From contig CAZXDT010000001.1 in the NCBI GenBank assembly GCA_964639295.1, positions 52,784 through 116,783 on the forward strand: 64,000 bases of DNA, written 5' to 3'. The stretch's first letter is position 1, and the number at the start of each line of letters is the position of its first letter. Made by a program: the position numbers and the translations under genes. Under the pieces are notes generated by a model. That model was given only the letters and a program-made list of their open reading frames with translations. It made no database searches and had not been told where the DNA came from. The stretch comes from an uncultured Candidatus Saccharibacteria bacterium (GTDB taxonomy: Bacteria > Patescibacteriota > Saccharimonadia > Saccharimonadales > JALRHH01). Below are positions 792 through 37,633 of the stretch, in pieces.

Positions 792-2188
792 AAGTTCAAA
801 ACACACTCACGAGATCACTTGATGAAATCAAGCCACTAGAAGGTAAAAAGATCGGATTATACACTTGTGGTCTGACTGTTTACAGCCAACCACACATTGG
901 TAACTGGGTTGCCTACATTTATTGGGATGTTCTGGTACGTACACTCAAAGATGCCGGATTTGATGTTACTCGCATTCAAAACATTACCGATGTTGGACAC
1001 CTGACTTCAGATGAAGATGCTGGTGAAGACAAGATGCTCAAAGGTGCACTCACAGAGGGTATAACAGCTTGGCAAGTTGCAAAAAAATATATAGCAATCG
1101 CCGATGACGAAGCCTATAACAAACTCGGCTTATTACGTCCGGACCACATGCCACGCGCAACTGAATATATCCCGCAGCAAATCGCATTCGTACAAGAGTT
1201 AGAGAAAAAAGGCTACACCTACGTCATTGCAGATGGCGTCTATTTTGATACTTCAAAACTTTCTAATTACGGCGAGTTAGCCCGACTAGATATTGACGGA
1301 TTACAGTTTGGTGCACGTGTCGCTGATACCGGCAAGAAGAACCCAACTGACTTTGCTGTATGGAAGTTCTCTGACCCTGCCGAAAAGCGCGATATGGAAT
1401 GGGAAAGCCCGTGGGGCAAAGGATTCCCAGGCTGGCACCTAGAATGTTCTGTTATGGCACGTGAACTACTGGGTGATCAAATTGACATCCACACTGGTGG
1501 AATAGACCACATCCCCGTACACCACACTAATGAAATAGCTCAGACGGAGGCAGTGACTGGTAAAAGGTTCAGTACTTACTGGATACATAATAACCACCTT
1601 AAAGTTGATGGTGAAAAGATGTCCAAATCACTGGGTAATATCTACACATTACAAGACATCATCGATAAGGGTTTCGACGTTGAAGCCTTTAAATTAACTA
1701 TCCTGGCCAAACATTATCGCACAGAAGGTAACTTTACCTGGGACATTCTAGAAGCCTCACAGAACCGTCTCAATGGATACCGAGCAATGGCAGACCAACA
1801 GTGGCAAGCTAATGAACAAGGAAAAGTGACTGATACTGAACTGCAGCAGGCAAAAAAGGCAATCCAAGAAGCTCTTCAAGACGACCTAAACACTGCTCAG
1901 ACACTAGCAATTCTTAGTCAAATTGAAGGCTCTATTGACAGTGGTGGTATTAGCACCGGTAGTCAAGGTTTATACCAAGATTTCTTAAAGTGGGTTGATA
2001 ACGCACTTGGGCTTACCCTAAGTAGCCGCTCTGACATCACTGAAGAACAGAAGATTTTAGTTAAAGAACGGCAAGAAGCTCGTGATGACCAAAACTGGGA
2101 AATAGCCGACCGCGTCCGTGACCAACTCCGCGACCAGGGTATAGAAATAAAAGACACATCCCGTGGCCAAATCTGGTCCCGAGTTTAA
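788..2188 (+). CDS. cysS: Cysteinyl-tRNA synthetase
   Basis: Class I aaRS HIGH-type motif (PHIGN), KMSKS motif, Cys-binding CGLTVY region; length 466 aa. Confidence 0.9.
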   Translation: MKVQNTLTRSLDEIKPLEGKKIGLYTCGLTVYSQPHIGNWVAYIYWDVLVRTLKDAGFDVTRIQNITDVGHLTSDEDAGEDKMLKGALTEGITAWQVAKKYIAIADDEAYNKLGLLRPDHMPRATEYIPQQIAFVQELEKKGYTYVIADGVYFDTSKLSNYGELARLDIDGLQFGARVADTGKKNPTDFAVWKFSDPAEKRDMEWESPWGKGFPGWHLECSVMARELLGDQIDIHTGGIDHIPVHHTNEIAQTEAVTGKRFSTYWIHNNHLKVDGEKMSKSLGNIYTLQDIIDKGFDVEAFKLTILAKHYRTEGNFTWDILEASQNRLNGYRAMADQQWQANEQGKVTDTELQQAKKAIQEALQDDLNTAQTLAILSQIEGSIDSGGISTGSQGLYQDFLKWVDNALGLTLSSRSDITEEQKILVKERQEARDDQNWEIADRVRDQLRDQGIEIKDTSRGQIWSRV

Positions 2189-2213
2189 TCAGACCCCTAG
2201 ATAAAACTAAGCT

Positions 2214-3302
2214 TTATTGGCCGATAGCTGCTTCTTTGGCAGCTTGCTTGCTAATGTGACCATTTACTTCTAGCCAGTCGAGTATAAGAATACGTGCGCA
2301 GCCCGTAATTGGAATAGCCACGAGACCGCCCAGAAGGCCGCCGAAGCTCACACCAACAAGAACTGACATGAATACCATAAGTGGAGGCAAGTCGGTTGAG
2401 TTAGCCTGTACACGGGGCTGGATGAGGTAGTTCTCAATCTGCTGGTACAGGATGTAGTACGCCAAGATAATAAGTGCCGTAATTGGGGACTGGAACAAAG
2501 CAATTGTACTAACAATAATTGCGCCAATCGTGTGGCCAACCATAGGAATTAAGCCACATATAAACACAATCACCATGAGCGCAATAGGGTAACTAACCCC
2601 TAGAATTAACAGAGGTACAACTATCATAACCGCAGCAAGTGCTGCCAAGAATACTTGACCATTCACATAACCCTTAATGACGCGGTACATGGAGGTCGTA
2701 AGACGCTTAGCACGAGGCCGATCTTTACTAGGTACGAATTGGGAGCCAAACTTGAGCCAAGATGGTCCTTCAATCAACATCATAAATGTCATAACTAACA
2801 CAGCTAGTAGAGAGAATAAGCTACTACTAATCTTTCCAAAGGTTGATACAGCCCCTCCACCGATGTTGTCGAGACGACTTGAGAGCTGGTGCGATAGTTT
2901 ATCAGTTTGGTCTTCTAGATTGTACTTACGTACAAAACGACCAAGCGATGTGTCATCACTTCTTAGGTCATCAACTAAGCTAGGAACGGAACTAATAAAG
3001 TTAGAGGTCTGTTTAACAAGTGGTGGAACAATGCTTGCCAGGAAACCAATCAGAAATAGCACAACGAGCAAGAAAGCTGTTGCAGTGCCAAGTTTACGAC
3101 TACCACGGCGTTTGCCAGGAAGATGCTCTGCAATCCAGTGGACGGGCGCGTTAAGGGCCAATGCTAGGAACACGGCGGTAAAAATAAGTATGAGGGAATG
3201 GGTAGCCTTGCTCAGTGCTCCAACGAACAGACTGGCAAGCACGACCATTGCGATGACACGTAGTATCGTGCGGTTGGAAATAGTTACTTCTACTTTACTC
3301 AT
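2214..3302 (-). CDS. AI-2E family (PerM/YhhT-like) membrane transporter
   Basis: Multi-TM protein with the typical AI-2E architecture. Start moved to internal ATG (MSKVEV) because the ORF-track start is a TTG. Confidence 0.7.
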   Translation of the reverse strand: MSKVEVTISNRTILRVIAMVVLASLFVGALSKATHSLILIFTAVFLALALNAPVHWIAEHLPGKRRGSRKLGTATAFLLVVLFLIGFLASIVPPLVKQTSNFISSVPSLVDDLRSDDTSLGRFVRKYNLEDQTDKLSHQLSSRLDNIGGGAVSTFGKISSSLFSLLAVLVMTFMMLIEGPSWLKFGSQFVPSKDRPRAKRLTTSMYRVIKGYVNGQVFLAALAAVMIVVPLLILGVSYPIALMVIVFICGLIPMVGHTIGAIIVSTIALFQSPITALIILAYYILYQQIENYLIQPRVQANSTDLPPLMVFMSVLVGVSFGGLLGGLVAIPITGCARILILDWLEVNGHISKQAAKEAAIGQ

Positions 3303-4446
3303 TATGGGTATTATCCTGCGTTCCTGCCCGTTTGGCAATTATCTTTTCATAGATCTGTACTAATTCTGGACCAACTGTAGCGATATCATACTGACTAATT
3401 GCGGCTTGCTGCTCTGTATGTAAGCGTTCTCGTAAAGTAATATCCGTGATCATTTGTTCCAGACACTCTGCAAAAACTTCTGTGTTCATGGGGTCAATTA
3501 ATGTCTCTGGCCATGGTGCTAAAACGCTAGAGTAGCCAGGGTTATTACCACCCAGCACTACGCCGGCTCGGGCTGCCATAGCTTCTAGTAGTACAATACC
3601 GAAACTCTCGCCACTGATGCTTGGGAAAATGGCAATATCGGCAGCACCGAGAATGCTTGGCTTGTCTTCCTCTGGCACAAAGCCGCTAAACGTTACAATA
3701 TCATCTATTTTGGCTGATTGAGCATACTTTTCTAGCTCTGGCAGGAGCGGACCTTTACCGGCTACAACAACTTCAAGTGTATCTCTAGTTGCCTGAGGTA
3801 GTGCTGCGACTGCCTGCAATAATTGCAGCGCACCTTTCCGCAGTACAAGGCGACCAAGGAATACAATGCGAGTCTTACCTGGTGTTGTCACGGGCTTACT
3901 GTTCTTTTGATACCAAGCAAGGTCAACAACATTAGGTAGTACATCTGCTGTCACCCCAAGGCTTTTCTTAGTAAAATCAACCGCTGGAGGTGATACTGCA
4001 AGCACCTTATCAAAACGTTTGACACTAGGACGAAGTAGCTTACCTAGTAGCTGTGTCCCGAGCGACTCCTTCCAGGTATAAGGCAGGATATGAAATGTTC
4101 CAATAATGCCAGTACGTGGTCCAGCCTCCAAGACAATATGCTGTGCCATAAATGGATGATGGGGCATTTGAACATGCAAGATATCAAACTGCTGCTCCTG
4201 CAGAAACTTTCGTAATTTACGACGACTCGCCCAAACGGGGATTGTTGTTCTGTTTCCGTTGAATTTGACAGTTATATTCCGACATAAGCTGTGAATATTA
4301 GGTATGTCGCGGTGTTCAGTCTGCCCAACTAGGTAGTGCACGTCATGACCCTGAGCTGTAAGCCATTCACCAACACGTAGAACATACTGCTGCACACCGT
4401 CGTTTGGATCAAGTGACGTATCAAGTACGAAACCGATTTTAGCCAT
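3295..4446 (-). CDS. Glycosyltransferase family 4
   Basis: C-terminal ESFGIVLLEAMAA..GGNNPGY motif (GT4/GT-B). Start placed at MAKIGFVLD so that it abuts the upstream GT4 stop. Confidence 0.8.
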   Translation of the reverse strand: MAKIGFVLDTSLDPNDGVQQYVLRVGEWLTAQGHDVHYLVGQTEHRDIPNIHSLCRNITVKFNGNRTTIPVWASRRKLRKFLQEQQFDILHVQMPHHPFMAQHIVLEAGPRTGIIGTFHILPYTWKESLGTQLLGKLLRPSVKRFDKVLAVSPPAVDFTKKSLGVTADVLPNVVDLAWYQKNSKPVTTPGKTRIVFLGRLVLRKGALQLLQAVAALPQATRDTLEVVVAGKGPLLPELEKYAQSAKIDDIVTFSGFVPEEDKPSILGAADIAIFPSISGESFGIVLLEAMAARAGVVLGGNNPGYSSVLAPWPETLIDPMNTEVFAECLEQMITDITLRERLHTEQQAAISQYDIATVGPELVQIYEKIIAKRAGTQDNTHNE

Positions 4447-6305: not shown

Positions 6306-7232
6306 TTACTTCGAGAGTAGGGCACGGATTTCTTTGGGGATGATTGGGGCTGCTTCTTCCTTAGTAGCAATGACACTTGGAGCATGATTATGTAGGTCTG
6401 ACACGGCAAGATTAAAGTCTGTGAATATTACACGCATATGCTGCTCAACGCTGTTGTTGTCAAAGTACTTATCGCCTTTAACCGCAACATGCCACACTGG
6501 TAGCGCTACTTTTTTCTGGCAATTATCCACTGTAAGCATCTCAACTGTCGTAAACATGTGTGTCTGAGGTTCGTTAGCCTGCCAAAGGTGTACTTCAAAA
6601 TCCATCAATTTTTTAAATTCTTTTTTATCTGCGCCTTCAAATTTATGTTTGGCATTATGTGTCCGCGCATAGACTGAACGAAGTAATAATGGGTTTAGCC
6701 CTACGTTTTTGAAGATAATAGACGGTAGCTTGTAGGATAAGAACCGTGATGCCCCCACATACGCCTTGTAACGCTTTGGTGTGAACATAAAGTCGTCCTT
6801 GTGCGCAAAACCCGCAAGACTTACTACCAAATCAACTTTGTCTACGAGGTCAGGGTAGCGTTGCAGCATTCGTGTCGCAACAATAAACCCGTATGACAGA
6901 CCAGCAATTGAAAATCGGCGGCGTTTGTAGTGCATTTTAACAAATGCAGCCAAGTAGTCAGCCATTGCATCAAGCGTCGGCTTTTGTCCAATTGTATAGA
7001 AGCTATCCATACCACCAAATCCAGGTAAATCTGGCATAGTAATTGCACCATACTGATTCAAATCTTGTACGAGACCCCACCAACGCTCAAGTGTTGAATG
7101 ATGGCCGTACACAAATAGTATCTCTCGCTTATGGTCAGCAGGGGCGGGCATACGCAACATGCGACCATTGAGGCCGTTAATATATAACGGAACTATATAA
7201 TCGCCCGGATTATCGGATATTTTGTTTGCCAT
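6306..7232 (-). CDS. Alpha/beta hydrolase fold protein
   Basis: HGHHS oxyanion region and GLSYG nucleophile elbow (GxSxG). Confidence 0.6.
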   Translation of the reverse strand: MANKISDNPGDYIVPLYINGLNGRMLRMPAPADHKREILFVYGHHSTLERWWGLVQDLNQYGAITMPDLPGFGGMDSFYTIGQKPTLDAMADYLAAFVKMHYKRRRFSIAGLSYGFIVATRMLQRYPDLVDKVDLVVSLAGFAHKDDFMFTPKRYKAYVGASRFLSYKLPSIIFKNVGLNPLLLRSVYARTHNAKHKFEGADKKEFKKLMDFEVHLWQANEPQTHMFTTVEMLTVDNCQKKVALPVWHVAVKGDKYFDNNSVEQHMRVIFTDFNLAVSDLHNHAPSVIATKEEAAPIIPKEIRALLSK

Positions 7233-7265
7233 TAGCCTCTATTGTAATACATTTCCAGAGAAGAA

Positions 7266-8516
7266 CTAGAGAAATCGGGGTTTAAATCGCCACAATGCAG
7301 GTGGCTTCTCAATACTACTATTTAGAAGTCCCGGCGAGTCGACTTGTATTCGGCCAAAGTTACCTTTGATAATGCCGACTTGTGTACCGTGAGGGATGGT
7401 TTTCTGTGGAACCGGGATCGTATCAAGCGTTATTTCAGGTTTGATAGGGCTGCCGCGCCATACCACGCCCTTAACATCTTGTTTTGCCGCTACTTGAACG
7501 GAGCCTCCCCACGGCACCGCATATGTTCCAACTGTTTGATTGGCTTTGACGAGTGTCGTTTCTTCGAACCCATTAAACACAGAATTTATCAGTGGTATAG
7601 AATTTCTCAATGCTTCACTCAGGTTACTTGCGCCCATAATGACACTAACTGCTACAATCTTTTGGCCTCCGATGATGCGTTCTGCAGCTGCCATAAAACA
7701 GCCCCCAGCTTGTTCGGTGTTGCCAGTCTTTACGCCAACTATCCCGTCACGACCTAGAAGCATATTAACGTTATAGATCCGACCCGCAACGGGTATGGTT
7801 GCCTCCTGTTGAGCAGCGATCTCTGCTATCACGGGATTATCCATGGCATTCACAGCCAAACGAGCGAGATCCTCAGAACTTGCTGCAGTTTTGGGTGAGT
7901 AGCCACTTGCATCTTCAAAATGTGCATTACTCATACCAAGTGTCTTAGACAAACTATTCACATAGGCGGTGTACTGCTTTTCTGAGCCGTAAGCCCAGAC
8001 AGCTAAAGTGTGCGCCATGTTGTTCGCAGAAGGCAGGAGAAGGGCTTGGAGTGCTTCATATTCTGTAATTTCTTCTCCTATGACAACGGGTACATTAGAA
8101 CCATCTTCTGAGACAACCTTCTGATAGTAATCAACGTCGTCTTGAGTGATTGTAATGATTGGACCTTTTTCACCTACTTTTAGTGGCTTTTGCTTGAGTA
8201 CCGCAAGAGCAGTCATGACTTTAGCAACACTTGCTGTTGGGAGTGCCTTTTGTTCACCGTATGTCCCAAGTACTCCATACCCAACGGCGCCTACTGCAGC
8301 CTGGCCGTGGTTAGGCCACTTGAAGGTAATACTCTTTGCAGTTAGTGGGGCAATAGCATCAGCCTTGCCTGTAATAGCAGGTACAGAGCGGCCAAAGGAG
8401 CTTGCGATATACACAATAACGACCAACACAATAACAAGTCGTAAGCCACGTCTGCGGCCACGCTTCTGTTTTGGATGTTTTACTCCCTTAAAATCCCGTG
8501 GTTCCACTACCCTCAT
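7266..8516 (-). CDS. D-alanyl-D-alanine carboxypeptidase (low-MW PBP, PBP5/6 type)
   Basis: N-terminal TM anchor, SVAK (SxxK) active-site motif, SGYS, KTGN triad (GVKTGNT). Confidence 0.75.
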   Translation of the reverse strand: MRVVEPRDFKGVKHPKQKRGRRRGLRLVIVLVVIVYIASSFGRSVPAITGKADAIAPLTAKSITFKWPNHGQAAVGAVGYGVLGTYGEQKALPTASVAKVMTALAVLKQKPLKVGEKGPIITITQDDVDYYQKVVSEDGSNVPVVIGEEITEYEALQALLLPSANNMAHTLAVWAYGSEKQYTAYVNSLSKTLGMSNAHFEDASGYSPKTAASSEDLARLAVNAMDNPVIAEIAAQQEATIPVAGRIYNVNMLLGRDGIVGVKTGNTEQAGGCFMAAAERIIGGQKIVAVSVIMGASNLSEALRNSIPLINSVFNGFEETTLVKANQTVGTYAVPWGGSVQVAAKQDVKGVVWRGSPIKPEITLDTIPVPQKTIPHGTQVGIIKGNFGRIQVDSPGLLNSSIEKPPALWRFKPRFL

Positions 8517-8615
8517 ATATTGAGTTCATTATACCGAACATAAGCATATTGTGCCTAGATTGTTTTATTCCGACTTTTACGCTAGAATCTATCTGTTAAT
8601 CCTCTATATAAATAT

Positions 8616-8806
8616 TGGGGCGTGGCCAAGTGGTAAGGCACCAGTACTCCACCCCACGAAACAGGTTTCGCGGGGACCCCGGTTTGGTACTGGCATTCGG
8701 GGTGAAGATTACCTGTGGTAATCTGCAAGGGAACCTTCTGATGAAAACTTGTTTTCAATAATGAAGTTCCGGGCTCGCTGAAAGCGAGTCGAATCCCGTA
8801 TAATTA
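8616..8806 (+). pseudogene. Partial copy of tRNA-Gln (positions 1-53) interrupted by a 37-nt palindromic insertion in the anticodon loop and a ~90-nt insertion in the T-arm; lacks the 3' acceptor strand
   Basis: 8616-8645 and 8683-8702 are identical to the matching segments of the intact tRNA at 8836-8910. Inserted hairpin CCCCACGAAACAGG/TTTCGCGGGG. No acceptor 3' strand present. Confidence 0.5.
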
Positions 8807-8835
8807 ACATGATTCTGTTCTATCTTCTGGCTCAT

Positions 8836-8910
8836 TGGGGCGTGGCCAAGTGGTAAGGCACCAGTTTTTGGTACTGGCATTCGGGGGTTCGAATCCCTCC
8901 GCCCCAGCCA
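8836..8910 (+). tRNA. tRNA-Gln (anticodon UUG), CCA encoded
   Basis: Cloverleaf aligns position by position with E. coli tRNA-Gln (UGGGG..AAGCGGUAAGGCACC..UUUUG..GGUUCGAAUCC..CCCCAGCCA). Anticodon stem CCAGT/ACTGG, loop TTTTGGT. Confidence 0.85.
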
Positions 8911-8922
8911 GAAGAGAGCACA

Positions 8923-8940
8923 GAATCCCTCCGCCCAGCC
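8923..8940 (+). repeat. 18-nt direct repeat of the tRNA-Gln 3' end (GAATCCCTCCGCC-CAGCC) 12 nt downstream of the tRNA
   Basis: Matches 8891-8909 with a 1-nt deletion. Confidence 0.6.
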
Positions 8941-8974
8941 GAAAACTATCTATCAATCAAATCTCTCGTTCTTA

Positions 8975-9042
8975 TAGTTCGCATCTATTAGGGGGAGCCA
9001 TAAGCATTTTGACCTCTGTTTAGGCAGAGGTTTTTGTTTTGG
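8975..9042 (+). repeat. Dispersed intergenic repeat, copy 1 (head TAGTTCG..GGGGGAGCCATAAGCA plus terminator hairpin CCTCTG-TTTAGG-CAGAGG and T-run)
   Basis: Member of a family of at least 9 copies. Hairpin 9013-9030, T-run 9031-9040. Confidence 0.7.
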
Positions 9043-9103
9043 TTATGCTTGCAAATGACTAAAATGAGAGTATAAATAGTTTCTAAATTGAGGAGGCATA
9101 AAT

Positions 9104-9403
9104 ATGACTGAGCGTAGCGGTGAAAAGTTATCACTTAGAGAAGAAATTGTTGACGGTGCACGTGCACTAGGCGAGTTTGCTGTATATCTAGCTAAAAAAG
9201 TAGCAGGTGTACCTATGCCCCCAGATCCAGCAGAAGGACGTATCTACATTCCTGGAGACGGCAGGACACCATTACCAGCCACAGATTCTCCAAAGACCGA
9301 AGCAGAATGGGCAGCCATTTTAGGTGGTGATTTAGGCGAATTTGCTAATGACTACGAAGATGACCCGGAAGATGCCTGGGCGGAGCTCAGAAAGCAGATT
9401 TAG
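9104..9403 (+). CDS. Hypothetical small acidic protein
   Basis: AGGAGG RBS 6-11 nt upstream. TAG stop is fused to the head of repeat copy 2. Confidence 0.5.
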   Translation: MTERSGEKLSLREEIVDGARALGEFAVYLAKKVAGVPMPPDPAEGRIYIPGDGRTPLPATDSPKTEAEWAAILGGDLGEFANDYEDDPEDAWAELRKQI

Positions 9404-9470
9404 TTCGGAAGTCGTTTATTAGTGGGAGCCAAGCATAAGCACTTTGTAAGAGCAAAGTGTTTTTGTTTTG
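9401..9470 (+). repeat. Dispersed repeat, copy 2 (TAGTTCGGAAGTCGTTTATTAGTGGGAGCCAAGCATAAGCA plus hairpin CACTTTG-TAAGAG-CAAAGTG and T-run)
   Basis: 35-nt head identical to copies at 35971 and 37668; terminator subtype B. Confidence 0.75.
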
Positions 9471-9484
9471 GTACAATAGTCTCA

Positions 9485-9730
9485 ATGAAGAGAGTAATCC
9501 TGTTCACATATTTCATACTCAGTATTACTACTATTAGTGCTTGGCTAATTTGGAGCACAGCTAGAAATGCATGTGACGGCTTCTTTAATGGTGGACATGC
9601 TGTAATTTGCTATCCGGATGATCAGACACAACTTGGAATCGTACTATACGGTATTTTCATAGGTATTGTGTTTACTGGTGTGTCTTTGCTCGTGATGAAG
9701 TTGCTTGGTTTTAGTCTTACGAGAAAGTAA
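9485..9730 (+). CDS. Small membrane protein (2 TM)
   Basis: ATG chosen downstream of the repeat. The ORF-track GTG start lies inside the repeat/terminator. Confidence 0.4.
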   Translation: MKRVILFTYFILSITTISAWLIWSTARNACDGFFNGGHAVICYPDDQTQLGIVLYGIFIGIVFTGVSLLVMKLLGFSLTRK

Positions 9731-9744
9731 CTTCATGTGTTCTA

Positions 9745-9808
9745 ACCTCATCCACTAGGAGGAGCCATAAGCATAAGCACTTTGCGATAGCAAAGTGTTT
9801 TTGTCTTG
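9745..9808 (+). repeat. Dispersed repeat, copy 3 (..CCACTAGGAGGAGCCATAAGCATAAGCA plus hairpin CACTTTGC-GATA-GCAAAGTG and T-run)
   Basis: Same subtype B hairpin as copy 2. Confidence 0.7.
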
Positions 9809-9824
9809 ATGATAAAATACAGTC

Positions 9825-10313
9825 ATGGAATTATTCGACCTAGTAAATCAGAATGACGAAGTTATCGGTACTACTCATAAAGCAGAGGCACATGGCAAAA
9901 ACCTACTTCACAGAGTTGCTGCTGTATTCGTGTTCGATGGTGAAGGTAAACTTTACGTACAACTCCACAAGAAAAGTGGAAAATATGACCACTCAGTTGG
10001 GGGACATGTATCTCAAGGGGAGAATTATGACCAAGCCGCCAAGAGAGAGTCAGAAGAAGAGCTTGGAATTACACAGCCATTAGATTTCGTTTCAAGATTT
10101 TATTCTGACGAAGGTGATATGCGTCATATGTTTGGGATTTACGAATGTATAGCTGAAGATACCTGGAAATTTGTTCCTAATGATGAAGTAGAAGAAATTA
10201 CTCCTATGACAATTATGGCTATACGTAAAGACATGGAACAAAGACCAGAGCTATTCACAGGCGGATTTATTAACACCATGTCCGAATACTGCAGGGTTAA
10301 GCAAATAGTCTAG
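9825..10313 (+). CDS. NUDIX hydrolase
   Basis: Nudix box GGHVSQGENYDQAAKRESEEELGI (Gx5Ex7REUxEExGU). Confidence 0.7.
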   Translation: MELFDLVNQNDEVIGTTHKAEAHGKNLLHRVAAVFVFDGEGKLYVQLHKKSGKYDHSVGGHVSQGENYDQAAKRESEEELGITQPLDFVSRFYSDEGDMRHMFGIYECIAEDTWKFVPNDEVEEITPMTIMAIRKDMEQRPELFTGGFINTMSEYCRVKQIV

Positions 10314-10325
10314 ACTAAACCTGGA

Positions 10326-10377
10326 CTCGGAAGTCGATTACTAGGGCAAACTGAAAAACGCCTACTGGTCGTAGGCG
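10326..10377 (+). repeat. Degenerate copy 4 of the dispersed repeat (CTCGGAAGTCGATTACTAGGG) plus hairpin CGCCTAC-TGGTC-GTAGGCG
   Basis: Partial head match. The hairpin lies between convergent genes and has a T-run on the minus strand. Confidence 0.45.
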
Positions 10378-10847
10378 GCTTGGAGGGCGGCGATGTCGAT
10401 CTTTTTCATCTGTAGCATGACTGCCATTGCTTGACCTGACTTAACTTTGTCTGGGCCCATTAATAAGTCACCCATTTGTTTAGGAACAATTTGCCAACTA
10501 ATACCAAACTTATCCTTACACCAACCGCACTGTTCTGATTCTGGTACTGCCGACAACTTTTCCCAGTAGTAATCTACTTCTTCTTGTCCATCACAGTTCA
10601 CAATAAACGACACTGCTTCATTTGGTTTGAATATAGGGCCACCGTCTAAGCACACGAACTCATGACCATCTAAATCAATGACACCGTGTAAAATTTTGCC
10701 CTCAAAGCCCTTCATAGGACCCTCCGGGACTTCCTCCGGATATCGATCCATGGCTACTATTTTTGAATTCTTGAATACGCTAGCGTAGTAGTTCATTGCT
10801 TCTTCGGCATTGCGATCAAACCATAGCCCAGTAGAAATTTTTTGCAT
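10362..10847 (-). CDS. VOC-family (PhnB-like / 3-demethylubiquinone-9 3-methyltransferase-domain) protein
   Basis: MQKISTGLWFDRNAEEAMNYY..FGISWQIV signature of the PhnB-like VOC family. Confidence 0.65.
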   Translation of the reverse strand: MQKISTGLWFDRNAEEAMNYYASVFKNSKIVAMDRYPEEVPEGPMKGFEGKILHGVIDLDGHEFVCLDGGPIFKPNEAVSFIVNCDGQEEVDYYWEKLSAVPESEQCGWCKDKFGISWQIVPKQMGDLLMGPDKVKSGQAMAVMLQMKKIDIAALQAAYDQ

Positions 10848-10931
10848 ACAAATACTCCTATTTACTTGTTATTAGCTTAGCAAGCTTAATGAAACTATGT
10901 GCAATATTTATCACAGTAAGGACTGTGTCAC

Positions 10932-12500
10932 CTACCAGTGTTTTACAACTCGCCCAATAACTTGATCGATCTTAAGTGGGCCGTTCAGCCTGGAATCAAC
11001 AGAACCTGGTCGATTGTCACCGGCCACGAACACTTCATCTGACGCCAACTTAATGTCTATCAAGGCGTCTGAAGTATCTTTATGCATAGTTTTCTCCCAT
11101 CCAGAACCTTTATCAACCTTGAAGCCACGAACGTTATCTTCGTTATACACTGTCACAACGCCGTTGATAACAGTTACGCGTTCTCCTGGCAAACCGAGCA
11201 CACGCTTGACGATAATATGCTCGTTTTCTTGGATCTGCTCCGGGGAAACAAGGCCATACACCGCGTTAATTACGACTACATCACCACGATGCAGTGTCGG
11301 ACGTTCATGATTAAAATGGGCAATTGTCTGGGGTAGTCGATACACCAACATGGACTGTTTATCCTGGAAAGTTGAAGTCATACTTTCTCCATTCACATGG
11401 TAGATAGTGGCGACGTTGTTTTTCACCGTAAAATACAAGCCGATAACGAATAGAGGTATCAGCCAAAAAATACCGATGTACTTTAAGGTCGTCTTGTTTC
11501 GCCTAACCCACACAATAAACTTTTTGCTAAAAAACCGTTCCAGTGCGTAATCAACTCTTTCAAGCAAGATTTCAACATAGAGCGCTATACGTTGCCTGAA
11601 CGTATTCATTCTCAATAAACCATGGTAGACCAGCCTCCTATAATGTTGAACATATAGCTGCATACATCTATACGTCAGAATCAGCAACGTAATTACCAAG
11701 ATAATAGCAAAGATGAGTTTCGATACATTCCTACCAAGCCCAAAAGTACGATAGATGAGATTAAATAGACTATCGTTAAAGTTATCCGGAACTATTTGTT
11801 CATGTACAACTTGCTGCCCAGACTGATACTGTGAGACCCTTAGTAACTGTTGCCTTGGATATGAAACGTATCGCATATCAAACGGTAGTAATTTTGATGT
11901 ACTGTACGCAAGTTTACCTGAAACATAATAGTCAACTTTATTTAACGAGTCATAGTCAGGACTGGCGGGGATACCGACGAGTAGCGAGGCCTTGTCCCTA
12001 AGTGTTGTAGGTGCCTTAATATAGGCTTTTTCACTCCCTTGAACTAATTCACATTCAACTTTAGGCACACAGACCGGGTTCTCTGGATCGAGTAGTAATA
12101 CTGCTGGTCGGTTGGCATTTGGTACATTTGTAAGTTTGGGTGAAATAAGTTCCAGGACGACTCGACCATCACTGGGTATTATGGTCCCAACCTTGGTCCA
12201 GGTATCACCGTTTAGAACAGTAGAACCAATGATCCGACAACCACCTTCAAGTGATTCATTAACCTGATTAATCCTGACCTGCAACGATTGGCCACGAGTT
12301 CCTAGCTTGGCATACACATTTTTTGCGGTACTAATGTCTAGTATTGCAGTGTATGAGCCGTCAACACTCTCGCTACATCCGGTAGTAAAATTAAACTCTT
12401 TTGAATCTGCAAATGCAGTCCCGCAATGACTGATTATTAGTACTAACGCTAAAACTAATAAGGAGATAAAGCTCGAAAGCTGTGTTCTGATTCTTATCAC
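10932..12500 (-). CDS. lepB: Signal peptidase I with a large N-terminal extracytoplasmic extension
   Basis: SPase I boxes present: GESM (catalytic Ser), VKRVLGLPGE, GDNRPGSVDSR. N-terminal signal peptide, ~220-aa domain, then 2 TM segments before the catalytic domain. Confidence 0.75.
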   Translation of the reverse strand: MIRIRTQLSSFISLLVLALVLIISHCGTAFADSKEFNFTTGCSESVDGSYTAILDISTAKNVYAKLGTRGQSLQVRINQVNESLEGGCRIIGSTVLNGDTWTKVGTIIPSDGRVVLELISPKLTNVPNANRPAVLLLDPENPVCVPKVECELVQGSEKAYIKAPTTLRDKASLLVGIPASPDYDSLNKVDYYVSGKLAYSTSKLLPFDMRYVSYPRQQLLRVSQYQSGQQVVHEQIVPDNFNDSLFNLIYRTFGLGRNVSKLIFAIILVITLLILTYRCMQLYVQHYRRLVYHGLLRMNTFRQRIALYVEILLERVDYALERFFSKKFIVWVRRNKTTLKYIGIFWLIPLFVIGLYFTVKNNVATIYHVNGESMTSTFQDKQSMLVYRLPQTIAHFNHERPTLHRGDVVVINAVYGLVSPEQIQENEHIIVKRVLGLPGERVTVINGVVTVYNEDNVRGFKVDKGSGWEKTMHKDTSDALIDIKLASDEVFVAGDNRPGSVDSRLNGPLKIDQVIGRVVKHW

Positions 12501-35535: not shown

Positions 35536-35610
35536 TCCGGGGTAGCGCAGTGGTAGCGCAGTTGACTGTTAATCAATTGGTCGCGGGTTCGAATCCCGCC
35601 CCCGGAGCCA
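35536..35610 (+). tRNA. tRNA-Asn (anticodon GUU), CCA encoded
   Basis: Acceptor TCCGGGG/CCCCGGA, anticodon loop CTGTTAA, T-loop GTTCGAATC. Confidence 0.9.
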
Positions 35611-36118: not shown

Positions 36119-37633
36119 ATGCTAAAAATAAAGTTACTAAAGTCAGATCAAAAGGGCTTTTCGCACCACTTCATACTACCGCTAATCGTAATTACAGTCA
36201 TCGCAGGTATTGGTACGTATATAATTACGAAATCGAAGGCGGCAACAAGTGGGCCAGTTATTGCACAAAGAAGTCAAATTAGAGCTTTTTCAAGTGGTAA
36301 ATGCCTGGAGAATGATAATGGCACGAAAGCACTCGGAAATCTTATTGTCATCCGACCGTGCGATGCTAAGAAACCTGTATCCCAACTGTGGACTATTATG
36401 GGTGACAGGTCACTTCGTAATGCCAACGGCTATTGCCTTGATACCCAAGCAGGCATAATGACCCCAGGTACAAAGATTGTCATGCGCAATTGTACGGGCA
36501 ATGTAGACCAACAATGGGTAATTTTTACTGCTGATCAAACTATTCGTAACCCCCTAACTGGTCTGTGTCTCGCAAACGAAGCTGGCTCGTCACAAGTTAT
36601 CATAGATAGATGTGCTGAGAGTAAAACCCAACAACACTGGAACGCTGCTATTTACACAGGACAAAAACTACCTTCAGTGCCTACAGTGCCTAAAAAAATC
36701 GCTCCTACTGCTGGAGCAACGAGCAGATTCACGGTCGGAACATTCAACGTGCTGGGTTATCACTACACAATACCTGGTTCAAAATCATCCTTACAGAACT
36801 ATCCTGGTTTTCGTGATGGTATTACACGAATCGATTGGGCTGTGAAAATGTTCGAAGAGAACAAGCTAGACGTTGTGGGTTTACAAGAATTTGAGCCAGA
36901 ACAATATGGCCGTGTTAAAGCAATATACGCAGGGGATACAACTGGAAACTGGTTAATCTACCCAACCCCTATGCGGCAAGATACCAACAATGTTTCAACA
37001 GGTGCTATTATGTGGCGGAAAAATAAATTCACTATGATCGCTTCAGGGCACCGGTTAATTAGCAGAGCTAACTTTACGGACAAAGATGGGAATGAAGTTA
37101 CAAAAGATGCAGAAGCTCCTTGGGTAAAGCTCAAAGAAAACAGTACTGGCAAAGTATTTTATGTAACAAATATCCATGATGCCGTAACCACGCCTACTGT
37201 AAATAATGCTCAAACCCGAGTTGCAAACGAGACTGAAAATCTAGCCGATATAAAGAAAAAGTTAGCTGACGCACCCGTCATTGCGACCGGTGACTTTAAC
37301 TCTGGTTTTAGCTGGGACGCTACTCGTGATGCAGGGATACCGAAAACAAGCATAACCTACTGTATCCTAACCCAAGGTGGCTTTATGACCAATGCATATG
37401 ATATTTCACGTTATATCAAGGCGGGCGTTCAAGGAGAATATTTCAGTACGACTAATCGTACGACTATCCCGGCCTGTCCATCTTCTAGTAACCCAGATCG
37501 ATCGGACGTGGACCATATATATGTTAGCAACAAGGTAAATGTTCTGAACTGGATTGTTGTACCAGGAGAGACAGATCCCGCACTTAGGGTTTCAGATCAT
37601 AAACTCCATTACTCTAGCGTCAGCATTCAATAG
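36119..37633 (+). CDS. Secreted ricin-B (beta-trefoil) lectin fused to an endonuclease/exonuclease/phosphatase (EEP) domain
   Basis: Signal/TM; three QxW repeats (SQLW, DQQW, QQHW); EEP motifs GTFNVLG, VVGLQEF and C-terminal SDH. Confidence 0.7.
   Translation: MLKIKLLKSDQKGFSHHFILPLIVITVIAGIGTYIITKSKAATSGPVIAQRSQIRAFSSGKCLENDNGTKALGNLIVIRPCDAKKPVSQLWTIMGDRSLRNANGYCLDTQAGIMTPGTKIVMRNCTGNVDQQWVIFTADQTIRNPLTGLCLANEAGSSQVIIDRCAESKTQQHWNAAIYTGQKLPSVPTVPKKIAPTAGATSRFTVGTFNVLGYHYTIPGSKSSLQNYPGFRDGITRIDWAVKMFEENKLDVVGLQEFEPEQYGRVKAIYAGDTTGNWLIYPTPMRQDTNNVSTGAIMWRKNKFTMIASGHRLISRANFTDKDGNEVTKDAEAPWVKLKENSTGKVFYVTNIHDAVTTPTVNNAQTRVANETENLADIKKKLADAPVIATGDFNSGFSWDATRDAGIPKTSITYCILTQGGFMTNAYDISRYIKAGVQGEYFSTTNRTTIPACPSSSNPDRSDVDHIYVSNKVNVLNWIVVPGETDPALRVSDHKLHYSSVSIQ

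Follow-up and report, generated by a model that had tools for sequence, protein, structure and literature searches.

Organization of the tRNA-Gln locus

The window, by which we mean the whole 64,000-nucleotide stretch of Saccharibacteria DNA analysed here, contains a single tRNA-Gln(UUG) gene at 8836–8910, called by both ARAGORN and the Rfam tRNA model (63.9 bits), together with an interrupted copy of its 5' part lying 220 nt upstream and an 18-nt copy of its 3' end placed 12 nt downstream. The intact gene and the exact upstream copy, already recognized in an initial annotation of this DNA, were confirmed by ARAGORN, Rfam and a repeat search, and the other sequence features described there also stand at the positions given. 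The features of the locus are the following.

8583–8588, + strand: TAGAAT, −10-like; conserved upstream in relatives, putative promoter
8616–8645, + strand: outer tRNA-Gln copy, gene positions 1–30 (acceptor 5' strand, D-arm, anticodon stem 5' strand)
8646–8682, + strand: hairpin insertion of 37 nt in the anticodon loop of the outer copy; lineage-specific
8683–8702, + strand: outer tRNA-Gln copy, positions 32–51 (anticodon, anticodon stem 3' strand, variable loop, four of the five T-stem Gs)
8703–8788, + strand: three-hairpin RNA module of 86 nt (UGA-P1-GCAAGG-P2-CGGG-P3), substituting for G-T of the T-arm
8789–8797, + strand: TCGAATCCC, outer T-loop 3' part and stub of the T-stem 3' strand, equal to inner tRNA positions 54–62
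8799–8804, + strand: TATAAT, −10-like; placed for a start at the inner tRNA leader arm, putative function
8811–8832, + strand: leader arm of the helix around the inner tRNA (inverted repeat I1, 20 of 22 positions paired)
8836–8910, + strand: intact inner tRNA-Gln(UUG), CCA encoded (ARAGORN; Rfam tRNA model)
8906–8927, + strand: trailer arm of the helix, sharing its first 5 nt with the tRNA end and its last 5 nt with the start of the outer 3' segment
8923–8941, + strand: outer tRNA-Gln 3' segment (T-loop 3' part, T-stem 3' strand, acceptor 3' strand, GCC)
9011–9041, + strand: first terminator-like hairpin downstream of the unit, a member of a locally dispersed terminator repeat (families D1 and D2)

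The upstream copy consists of two exact direct repeats, of 32 nt (8614–8645, recurring at 8834–8865) and 20 nt (8683–8702, recurring at 8867–8886), separated by the 37-nt insertion, whose near-palindromic character had been noted from the start and holds. The near-palindrome itself, CCCCACGAAACAGGTTTCGCGGGG (8652–8675), is unique in the window, where no match is expected by chance, and for this single occurrence in the window a dispersed repeat was rejected. Neither ARAGORN nor Rfam, even at E ≤ 10, calls a tRNA within 8616–8797, ARAGORN reporting only the one tRNA-Gln at 8836–8910. The copy does not have the form of a functional tRNA, with the 37-nt insert in its anticodon loop, its T-loop replaced by the module, and its acceptor 3' strand 130 nt distant and one C short. 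On the downstream side, the 14-nt GAATCCCTCCGCCC at 8891–8904 recurs exactly at 8923–8936; this 3' copy, previously described with its 1-nt deletion, was found to reach 8941; it lacks one C and ends in G where the tRNA has A.

Read as a whole, 8616–8941 forms an outer tRNA-Gln that holds the module and the inner tRNA in its T-loop. The 7-nt T-loop repeat GAATCCC occurs at both edges of the nested segment (8791–8797 and 8923–8929), and a 22-nt inverted repeat (8811–8832 and 8906–8927, 91% complementary) flanks the intact tRNA on both sides. The locus is thus a working tRNA gene nested within an older, interrupted copy of itself: the resident tRNA-Gln was split in its T-arm by a segment consisting of the module, TCGAATCCC, TATAAT, leader, intact tRNA-Gln and trailer, and the split gene remains behind the ancestral TAGAAT, with its old 3' end at 8923–8941.

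An 86-nt structured RNA module

The segment at 8703–8788, taken in the initial annotation for a ~90-nt insertion left as a scar, is instead an undescribed, strongly conserved and strand-specific structured RNA, which covaries and recurs at dozens of tRNA loci. In an alignment of 39 sequences, 97.6% of the cells are paired and 21 of the 31 pairs show double (compensatory) changes, a degree of covariation that was matched by none of 500 shuffled controls; slid controls reached at most 48% pairing, and one pair is G·U in 31 of the 39 sequences. The metagenome set was gathered with a pattern fixing GGGGTGA and GAAAACTTGTTTTCAA, and invariance within these two stretches is therefore not evidence. 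The covariance model R1 scores the window copy at 102.1 bits on the + strand versus 14.8 bits on the − strand, and the family as a whole shows the same bias, with about 100 bits for the sense and 15–22 bits for the antisense orientation.

A search of 8703–8788 against Rfam 15 gave no family at the gathering score and, at E ≤ 10, only chance-level matches (snoZ161, E = 2.5; Trp leader, E = 8.5); in a scan of 11 related loci, tRNA and RNase P alone were matched. No small self-cleaving ribozyme (hammerhead, twister, pistol, hatchet and others) was matched in Rfam at E ≤ 10. The CUGAUGA of the window copy, considered as part of a hammerhead or kink-turn, is not a conserved motif, the consensus CUUCUCUUGA forming a regular, fully paired helix. 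Nor does the module resemble a MITE or insertion sequence, as its ends (UGA at one side, P3 at the other) are not inverted repeats and the target nucleotides are replaced rather than duplicated. ARAGORN found no tmRNA, and the acceptor is of the Gln type (U1:A72). The notion that each genome has its own P1 sequence was also discarded: the two modules of locus L014 share P1, but the three of L054 have three different P1 helices. In public databases, the module is mis-annotated as 'hypothetical protein'.

The position of the module in the T-, anticodon- or D-loop recalls archaeal non-canonical tRNA introns, and might suggest an intervening sequence removed as RNA, by self-splicing or by an enzyme, from copies that are, or recently were, functional tRNA genes. 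The flanking antisense segments could pair with both 'exon' edges in a guide-like manner, and both outer halves are present in the window and in two relatives (L057 and L058). We nevertheless consider an intron very unlikely, because no locus lacking a nearby intact tRNA of that kind has the module between two complete contiguous halves, and because the junction is short of two tRNA nucleotides. As for a bulge-helix-bulge intron, none of the upstream or downstream units has complete exons, and the same 2 nt are missing. As for a group I intron, the module, at 86 nt, is far below the usual size, lies mostly in the T-loop and has truncated flanks; Rfam gave no match to Intron_gpI or to the group II and small-ribozyme models.

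Distribution of the module among tRNA loci

At least 56 strong copies of the module were found across 44 metagenome loci, with further homologues in L005, L009 and L057. Each interrupts a truncated tRNA copy, in its T-, anticodon- or D-loop, and nearly all strong matches lie ~30–250 nt from an intact tRNA on the same strand, nearly always the cognate of the truncated copy; the exceptions are the L051 contig, which has no tRNA, and one copy in L049 located 3.4 kb from a tRNA. The module occurs at 12 tRNA species, the accompanying tRNAs being those for Gln, Val, Pro, Arg, Lys, His, Gly, Thr and Tyr. Its insertion point comes after G(GGG), and the two nucleotides that it displaces are GT in 24 cases and otherwise GC, TT or CG. 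The window locus belongs to a family of composite tRNA loci in Saccharibacteria-like (Candidate Phyla Radiation) genomes, in which an intact tRNA is nested in, or immediately adjoins, a truncated copy of what is nearly always the same tRNA, and in which two loop nucleotides of the truncated copy have been exchanged for the conserved 86-nt three-hairpin module.

Nearly every upstream-type locus has a TAnAAT-like hexamer ~25–40 nt before its intact tRNA. The outer parts are identical to the inner gene at some loci and full of indels at others; in L025, L026 and L035, the truncated copy represents a different allele from the adjoining intact tRNA, and degenerate modules occur in L058, L014 and L022. 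At the Pro-GGG, Arg-UCU and Gln-UUG loci, the module occupies orthologous positions in many diverged genomes, which looks like the vertical inheritance and purifying selection that a host-useful RNA would give.

Such an RNA, for example a protein-binding or regulatory one, could be transcribed from tRNA promoters or form the trailer of a tRNA, with the tRNA pieces as working parts; the sense and antisense pieces would then serve as closing helices or as processing or stability signals, comparable to rtT behind tyrT. This main rival to the reading that we prefer (see Discussion) is possible but, in our estimate, rather unlikely. It would account for the strong purifying selection on module structure, for the promoter-like element of each upstream unit, for the predicted folds in which antisense segments close helices around the module, for the confinement of hairpin expansions in the outer copy to loops, with intact stems in L056 and the window, and for the retention of the module at the orthologous tRNA-Pro, tRNA-Arg and tRNA-Gln loci. 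It fits less well with the variation among close relatives in copy number, side (leader or trailer) and host tRNA, with the clean loss of the module from L056 and L058 while the nested locus is still there, with the existence of decayed module copies, and with the free decay of tRNA parts distant from the module. Moreover, the 64-kb window has just one module copy, its second tRNA (tRNA-Asn) having none.

The tRNA-Gln locus in related genomes

Relatives with 51–80% identity in the neighbouring gene retain the nested layout, sharing the putative outer promoter, the outer 5' part, the inner TATAAT and a covarying leader–trailer helix; the outer 3' part is also retained in L056, L057 and L058. 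At the PBP–tRNA-Gln locus, the gene is nested with the module in the window, L005 and L057, nested without it in L056 and L058, and present as a single, un-nested tRNA-Gln with a downstream unit in L008 and L009. No filled/empty polymorphism was seen within one species, and the contigs of the closest relatives (L002–L004, L006 and L007) end inside the repeat, before any downstream sequence. The 37-nt insertion is missing from L005 and L057, and L056 and L058 carry unrelated hairpins at this loop.

In L057, the outer 5' strand TAGGGCG pairs with the outer 3' strand CGCCCTA (A2:U71), the inner gene being the G2:C71 allele. The outer 3' segment is intact in L057 (CCCTCCGCCCTAGCCA) and L058 (GAATCCCTCCACCCTAGCCA), and in L058 the 5' copies are progressively more decayed towards the promoter. 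The block TTTTACGCTAGAATCTATCTGTTAAT is kept upstream of tRNA-Gln or of the outer copy in L004, L005, L006, L008, L056 and L057, and TAGAAT is kept in a diverged context in L009 and L058. From this conservation we infer that TAGAAT once drove the ancestral tRNA-Gln gene and is today the promoter of the outer, interrupted copy; at 8583–8588 it is a better promoter candidate than the TATAAA first proposed for the partial copy, which is less supported. The inner TATAAT is likewise conserved, within CCCGTATAAT, in L005, L057 and L058.

The leader–trailer helix is lineage-specific and is maintained through compensatory change. Cognate duplexes have predicted energies of −9 to −24 kcal/mol, as compared with −1 to −5 kcal/mol for non-cognate combinations, and they are preserved with differing sequences in L053, L056 and L057. 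The inverted repeat thus diverges between lineages yet stays complementary, which is the behaviour of an RNA helix and not of transposase sites. Conservation of the arrangement among relatives, here extending to this compensatory change, is what the initial annotation had itself named as speaking against a scar.

An assembly artefact, that is, a chimeric or mis-collapsed repeat at the tRNA gene, is exceedingly unlikely. Short-k Logan contigs of the same strain do break off within the first copy, but such a break is expected of a real 32-nt repeat, and the same architecture was assembled independently, from other samples and by other assemblers, in L005, L053, L056, L057 and L058; among these, the NCBI MAG of L057 and the Logan contig of L058 are independent assemblies across the whole arrangement. 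Repeats at tRNA loci break short-read assemblies.

Neighbouring genes and the search for mobilizing enzymes

The neighbours of the locus are chromosomal genes, encoding a PBP5-like carboxypeptidase, glycosyltransferases, a signal peptidase, ATP synthase and CysRS. No integrase, transposase or reverse transcriptase was found with Pfam and PHROGs among 40 ORFs of the window, which are most of its long ORFs, several of 180–379 aa being outside the scan. No mobile-element gene occurs in the islet of accessory genes supposed to lie downstream, and the islet's NUDIX gene shows synteny with one relative. A phage origin was discarded, since blastn of 7000–11000 against 50,697 phage records matched the tRNA alone, and the module pattern hit no viral contig in IMG/VR.

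A large serine recombinase gene sits between two inverted module units in L041, and a homologue of it adjoins the L048 locus, suggesting that a serine recombinase is a possible mobilizing enzyme of the module units; tblastn of the L041 protein against the window gave no match. A serine-recombinase crossover at GT was rejected as the mode of insertion, since it would duplicate the dinucleotide in both junctions, and here it is absent from both. All-against-all BLAST of the ORFs of all loci yielded, instead of a recurrent protein partner, only synteny groups and spurious ORFs overlapping the module.

These results bear on the explanation initially offered, in which an integrase would have inserted DNA at a tRNA attachment site and excised it imprecisely, leaving functionless inserts as passive scars. 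Direct repeats of the kind left by such events are present: GAATCCC at the edges of the nested segment, the 14–18-nt 3'-end copy downstream, and, in L001, a tRNA 3'-end copy ~165 nt downstream of the tRNA; serine recombinase genes adjoin two module loci, and in Caldiarchaeum a tRNA-Thr fragment and an intact gene flank a recombinase element (PMC3293823), an archaeal precedent. Recombination at a tRNA gene is upheld by the partial copies, the GAATCCC bounds and the nested and un-nested relatives. The idea of an integrase scar fails for the module, and as an account of the locus passive scars are improbable. Neither the module nor the leader–trailer helix is an unconstrained remnant, as both covary; the module further has a conserved G·U pair and a marked strand asymmetry, recurs at 12 tRNA species and is absent from the viral contigs of IMG/VR, and no recombinase was found among the neighbours and the 40 screened ORFs. 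For the module, the passive-scar view is therefore largely refuted.

Discussion

The explanation that we tentatively favour, while granting it somewhat less than an even chance, is that the locus is a small disrupt-and-replace cassette that expresses a structured RNA. In the first step of the predicted mechanism, a non-autonomous cassette would recombine into a tRNA gene at a G|GT site, the tRNA sequence serving as homology. A cassette of the upstream or nested type would supply its own promoter together with the tRNA 5' part or a whole tRNA, and one of the downstream type would supply the tRNA 3' end and a terminator. Because the cassette brings promoter and tRNA parts, the cell would retain a working tRNA, and the parts of the old gene would decay as relics. 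The module would then be transcribed from a strong tRNA promoter and held folded by helices of tRNA-derived sense and antisense segments, the inner tRNA being freed from the leader–trailer stem by ordinary pre-tRNA processing; the role of the module RNA may lie in the spread of the cassette or in a benefit to the host. The early suggestion that the partial copy could yield a tRNA-derived small RNA may well have been on the right track.

The outer halves in L057, which match each other and not the inner gene, are as disruption and replacement predict, and the decay of relics, the turnover of nested and plain states at the PBP–tRNA-Gln locus, the constant tRNA context, the junction rule, the covarying structure of the module, the allele differences in L025, L026 and L035, the conserved inner TATAAT with its lineage-specific leader–trailer helix, and the serine recombinase genes at L041 and L048 likewise argue for a cassette. 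Against it stand the lack of a linked mobilizing enzyme at most copies, the lack of a clean target-site duplication or terminal inverted repeat at the module, a 2-nt replacement that matches no known transposition chemistry, the failure to see filled and empty alleles within one species, and the orthologous module positions across diverged genomes.

The locus is worth comparing with several known systems. Integrative elements such as phages, ICEs and genomic islands enter tRNA genes, often at the T-loop, and restore them. As with these elements, the insertion lies in a tRNA gene, the insert carries tRNA sequence, an intact gene remains and partial direct repeats are present; unlike them, the unit here is only ~130–240 bp, has no integrase, carries a whole tRNA or a 5' part with a promoter and not just a 3' end, contains a covarying structured RNA and replaces two target nucleotides. 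A second parallel is with the rtT repeats located after E. coli tyrT (Rfam RtT), which are repeat units of a tRNA operon, close with a copied tRNA 3' terminus and yield a small RNA. No similarity of the module to them in sequence or structure was detected (no Rfam match); the module can moreover precede tRNAs, occupy D- and anticodon loops, and be accompanied by antisense tRNA pieces. Group I introns of bacterial tRNAs are at least ~200 nt long, have a catalytic core (P3–P9) and complete exons, and are restricted to the anticodon loop. The resemblance to them is that of a structured, potentially mobile and phenotypically neutral RNA in a tRNA gene loop, whereas their size, catalytic core, complete exons and restriction to the anticodon loop are all absent here. 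Eukaryotic tRNA-derived SINEs disperse randomly by reverse transcription and have an internal promoter; they share with our units a tRNA-derived 5' head, a conserved but unrelated body and a hairpin or tail at the 3' end, as well as a non-autonomous, multi-copy nature, but the present units do not leave the cognate tRNA gene and rely on external promoters, reverse transcriptase not being in evidence.

[quoted passage not shown] In contrast to the archaeal genes, which have complete exons and are spliced at bulge-helix-bulge motifs, the copies described here are truncated and belong to bacteria, in which the tRNA comes from a separate, intact gene. We may also speculate that the module is a new mobile intron- or ribozyme-like RNA that enters folded tRNAs and is fixed by copying back and homologous recombination, a proposal to which we assign little probability. 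An exposed G|GU in one of three loops (D, anticodon or T) would be the site of entry, the antisense-tRNA segment next to the module would act as a guide by pairing with both target edges, and the outcome would be nested 'Russian-doll' tRNA genes. If true, bacteria would have a parallel to the processes to which the disrupted tRNA genes of archaeal episymbionts are attributed.

The disruption of tRNA genes has until now been considered chiefly in relation to archaeal tRNAs that are split or contain introns. For bacteria, the literature searched describes no functional tRNA gene housed within the T-loop of its own older copy; the arrangement provides a tractable system for studying how tRNA genes are disrupted, duplicated and repaired. 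Work on the module is feasible, as cultivated Saccharibacteria and abundant metagenomes exist. To our knowledge, few RNAs besides the universal ones are known from the Candidate Phyla Radiation, to which the module, if confirmed, would add a widespread, strongly structured class of non-coding RNA.

Architecture of the tRNA-Gln locus

ARAGORN and Rfam recognize a single intact tRNA-Gln(UUG) at 8836-8910 (63.9 bits) and make no call in the copy upstream of it. The repeats described around this gene in the initial annotation are exact, and the observation itself is confirmed. The features of the locus are as follows.

8614-8645 and 8834-8865, exact repeat of 32 nt
8683-8702 and 8867-8886, exact repeat of 20 nt
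8703-8788, 86-nt insert (the module, hairpins P1, P2 and P3)
8811-8832 and 8906-8927, inverted repeat of 22 nt (leader and trailer), 20/22 paired
8836-8910, intact (inner) tRNA-Gln(UUG)
8891-8904 and 8923-8936, exact repeat GAATCCCTCCGCCC
8616-8941, outer tRNA-Gln

The 37-nt insert separating the 32- and 20-nt blocks contains a 24-nt near-palindrome, unique in the window. Two features had been overlooked: the inverted repeat encloses the intact tRNA, and the downstream 18-mer naturally carries on the sequence of the upstream tRNA copy. The whole of 8616-8941 is an outer tRNA-Gln, whose T-arm contains, in order, the 86-nt insert, TCGAATCCC, TATAAT, leader, inner tRNA and trailer, with GAATCCC at each edge of the insertion as a direct repeat. 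Folding of the whole stretch beats shuffles (z = -4.3), and the predicted fold includes the leader–trailer stem and all three insert hairpins. An intron as the interrupting sequence fits poorly and appears highly improbable.

The locus in relatives

Relatives were collected via homologues of the adjacent carboxypeptidase gene (amino acid identities).

L005, 80%: promoter block and outer 5' part as in the window, without the anticodon-loop insert
L008, 69%: un-nested tRNA right after the same promoter, module-like unit downstream
L056, 64%: nested, plain palindromic hairpin in place of the insert
L009, 63%: un-nested tRNA right after the same promoter, module-bearing unit downstream
L057, 60% (NCBI MAG): nested layout, complete
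L058, 51%: nested, 86-nt insert shrunk to 8 nt, outer 3' segment intact

L005 carries the same T-arm insert as the window, with compensatory changes in the first hairpin, followed by 47 nt identical to the window until the contig ends. In P1 (8706-8728) the two differ at about six positions, mostly compensatory, unlike the other ~110 nt before the inner tRNA, which are almost identical; gene conversion from another copy may be responsible for this local hypervariability. L056 has additional hairpins in the D- and anticodon loops, and L058 has a different hairpin in the anticodon loop, a degenerate second unit downstream and, closer to the promoter, a 5' copy that is older and more decayed. Further, more degenerate tRNA-Gln-like 5' pieces and palindromes separate the conserved TAGAAT promoter from the outer copy (L058:2480-2395 (-) and L056:2440-2275 (-)), as would be expected if nesting had occurred in several successive rounds.

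The outer strands of L057, TAGGGCG (5') and CGCCCTA (3'), are of the A2:U71 allele and its inner gene is of the G2:C71 allele (TGGGGCG/CGCCCCA); the two outer halves thus make a matching pair, distinct from the inner gene. The leader–trailer helix is retained in every nested relative with differing sequences, its variable distal parts forming cognate duplexes of -9 to -24 kcal/mol versus -1 to -5 for non-cognate ones. Since nested layout and helix are both kept, the arrangement is conserved and under selection. Such conservation in relatives is what the initial annotation had named as refuting its own reading as recombination scars; its interpretation finds partial support, and pure integrase scars fit poorly and are improbable. 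An assembly artefact as the source also fits poorly, with a probability close to nil. Logan contigs assembled from short reads, for the same strain as well as for the 82% and 72% relatives (L002, L003, L004, L006 and L007; first ~125-160 nt of each contig), all stop within the first tRNA-Gln copy. The tRNA-derived repeats break assemblies systematically, so that such loci will be under-represented in MAGs.

The module as a structured RNA

A pattern derived from three module copies matched 44 metagenome loci; as it fixed GGGGTGA and the P2 tip, invariance there is an ascertainment effect. The structure UGA-P1-GCAAGG-P2-CGGG-P3, with 31 pairs, was tested on an alignment of 39 distinct copies. 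Paired cells make up 97.6%, both sides have changed in 21 of the 31 pairs, none of 500 column shuffles reaches any measure, and sliding the partners by 1-3 columns lowers pairing to 29-48%; one pair is G.U in 31/39 sequences. The module and the leader–trailer helix are both under RNA-type constraint. The covariance model scores ~85-109 bits on the tRNA strand versus 14-22 bits on the opposite strand, a difference that would suit an RNA made from the tRNA strand, and it finds exactly one copy in the window (8703-8788, 102 bits). The family is absent from Rfam 15, and the module from INPHARED phages and IMG/VR. About 30 database 'hypothetical proteins' (P0121-P0149; 40-84 aa, motif LQGNLLLKTCFQRRSFG), some on NCBI contigs of up to 930 kb, are spurious translations of the module and thus gene-calling artefacts.

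A second, unrelated T-loop insertion is seen in L001 (~5700-5612 (-)) and, downstream of the module, in L029 (~1776-1870). It interrupts a partial tRNA-Gln 3' copy after GGGGTTCG and reads …GAGCGGAG(A/G)AGCC…GGCGAT, then ATCCCTCC… to the CCA end, which suggests that loop-inserted hairpin modules at the tRNA-Gln locus belong to at least two families.

Rules shared by module loci

The module almost always lies ~30-250 nt from an intact same-strand tRNA, which in nearly every case is the source of the truncated copy; the exceptions are L051, a contig without a tRNA, and one L049 copy, 3.4 kb from a tRNA. The tRNAs concerned are Gln-UUG, Gln-CUG, Val-UAC, Val-CAC, Pro-GGG, Arg-UCU, Lys-CUU, Lys-UUU, His, Gly-GCC, Thr-GGU and Tyr. 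Two layouts occur.

Upstream type: promoter, tRNA 5' part, module, 8-10 nt continuing the tRNA, inverted copy of it, TAnAAT, intact tRNA
Downstream type: intact tRNA, terminator, diverged antisense copy of the tRNA 3' part, ~10 nt sense tRNA, module, tRNA 3' part through CCA, terminator

In 12-13 of 14 downstream loci the antisense segment outscores shuffled sequences, with no such excess over background in the sense comparison, and in predicted folds this segment shuts the unit into a long stem. The junction is regular: a G, in most cases as GGGG, closes the 5' flank, and the tRNA sequence continues after skipping two nucleotides (GT in 24 cases; GC, TT or CG in the others). This rule applies to the T-arm in most tRNAs, to the anticodon loop in Pro-GGG and to the D-loop in L040, L048 and L054. 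Two or three modules, or both layouts together, are found in L014, L020, L040, L049 and L054.

The units turn over between relatives. Truncated tRNA parts are identical to the neighbouring gene in L019, L047 and L055, heavily decayed in L015, L026 and L038, and derived from another allele than the adjacent intact tRNA in L025, L026 and L035; modules are decayed or gone in L058, L056 and the second copy of L014.

Genomic surroundings

The flanking genes are ordinary chromosomal ones (among them PBP5-like carboxypeptidase, hydrolase, glycosyltransferases, NUDIX, signal peptidase, ATP synthase, CysRS and two-component systems). Among species-representative genomes, the carboxypeptidase has a 45% identity relative in one only, an uncultured Candidatus Saccharibacteria MAG, and one homologue bears the label Saccharimonadales; these two matches underlie the putative assignment to Saccharibacteria. 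The 40 window ORFs screened (most long ORFs, with several of 180-379 aa left out) include no integrase, transposase or reverse transcriptase. The second window tRNA, tRNA-Asn(GUU) at 35536-35610 (+), has neither module nor partial copies, so the arrangement does not extend to every tRNA gene of this genome. A short dispersed unit (CATCTATTAGGGGGAGCCATAAGCAT, terminator hairpin, TTTTTGTTTTG) spaces the small ORFs downstream of the tRNA (8982-9041, 9413-9470 and 9749-9808), and the same terminator type stands behind the module unit of L009 (~2640-2590 (-)); the unit has the look of an intergenic terminator repeat specific to the lineage, not of an island boundary. Elsewhere in the window, the ORF at 36119-37633 (+) joins a ricin-type lectin domain to an endonuclease/exonuclease/phosphatase domain and also gives a weak CDtoxinA match, a predicted cytolethal-distending-toxin-like architecture that is unexpected for a small episymbiont genome.

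Origin of the nested arrangement

We tentatively favour, at somewhat less than even probability, a small cassette that recombines into tRNA genes. It would bring a replacement, either promoter and tRNA or 3' end and terminator, parts of the old tRNA would stay behind as relics, giving the module units, and repeated rounds of insertion would produce nested copies. A host small RNA using tRNA operons for its expression would agree with the retention of the module at orthologous loci and with the lack of a mobilising enzyme, but copy number, side and host tRNA vary, and clean module losses, decayed copies and allele mismatches occur; for these reasons the cassette is preferred, and the host small RNA is rather unlikely. 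No protein family recurs beside modules across different tRNA contexts. In L041, a gene for a large serine recombinase (Resolvase, Recombinase and Zn-ribbon; 1612-3606 (-)) is flanked exactly by two identical ~300-bp units in inverted orientation, each composed of terminator, antisense tRNA piece, module (1721-1806 (+) and 3438-3523 (-)) and terminator. A 35% identical homologue (L048:240-1520 (+)) abuts a module-bearing tRNA-Gln(CUG) locus. This type of recombinase is possibly the mobilising enzyme of the cassette, or its presence a coincidence of integration at tRNA sites.

The module loci resemble the rtT repeats, which are located behind E. coli tyrT. Closest in working are those integrative elements that interrupt a tRNA gene and restore it, and there is a resemblance to archaeal disrupted tRNA genes (PMC3293823); the loci fail the defining tests of all three alike. 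The full-text literature searched describes neither the module nor nested tRNA genes in bacteria. The real content of the locus is a new structured RNA family together with a nested tRNA-gene architecture.
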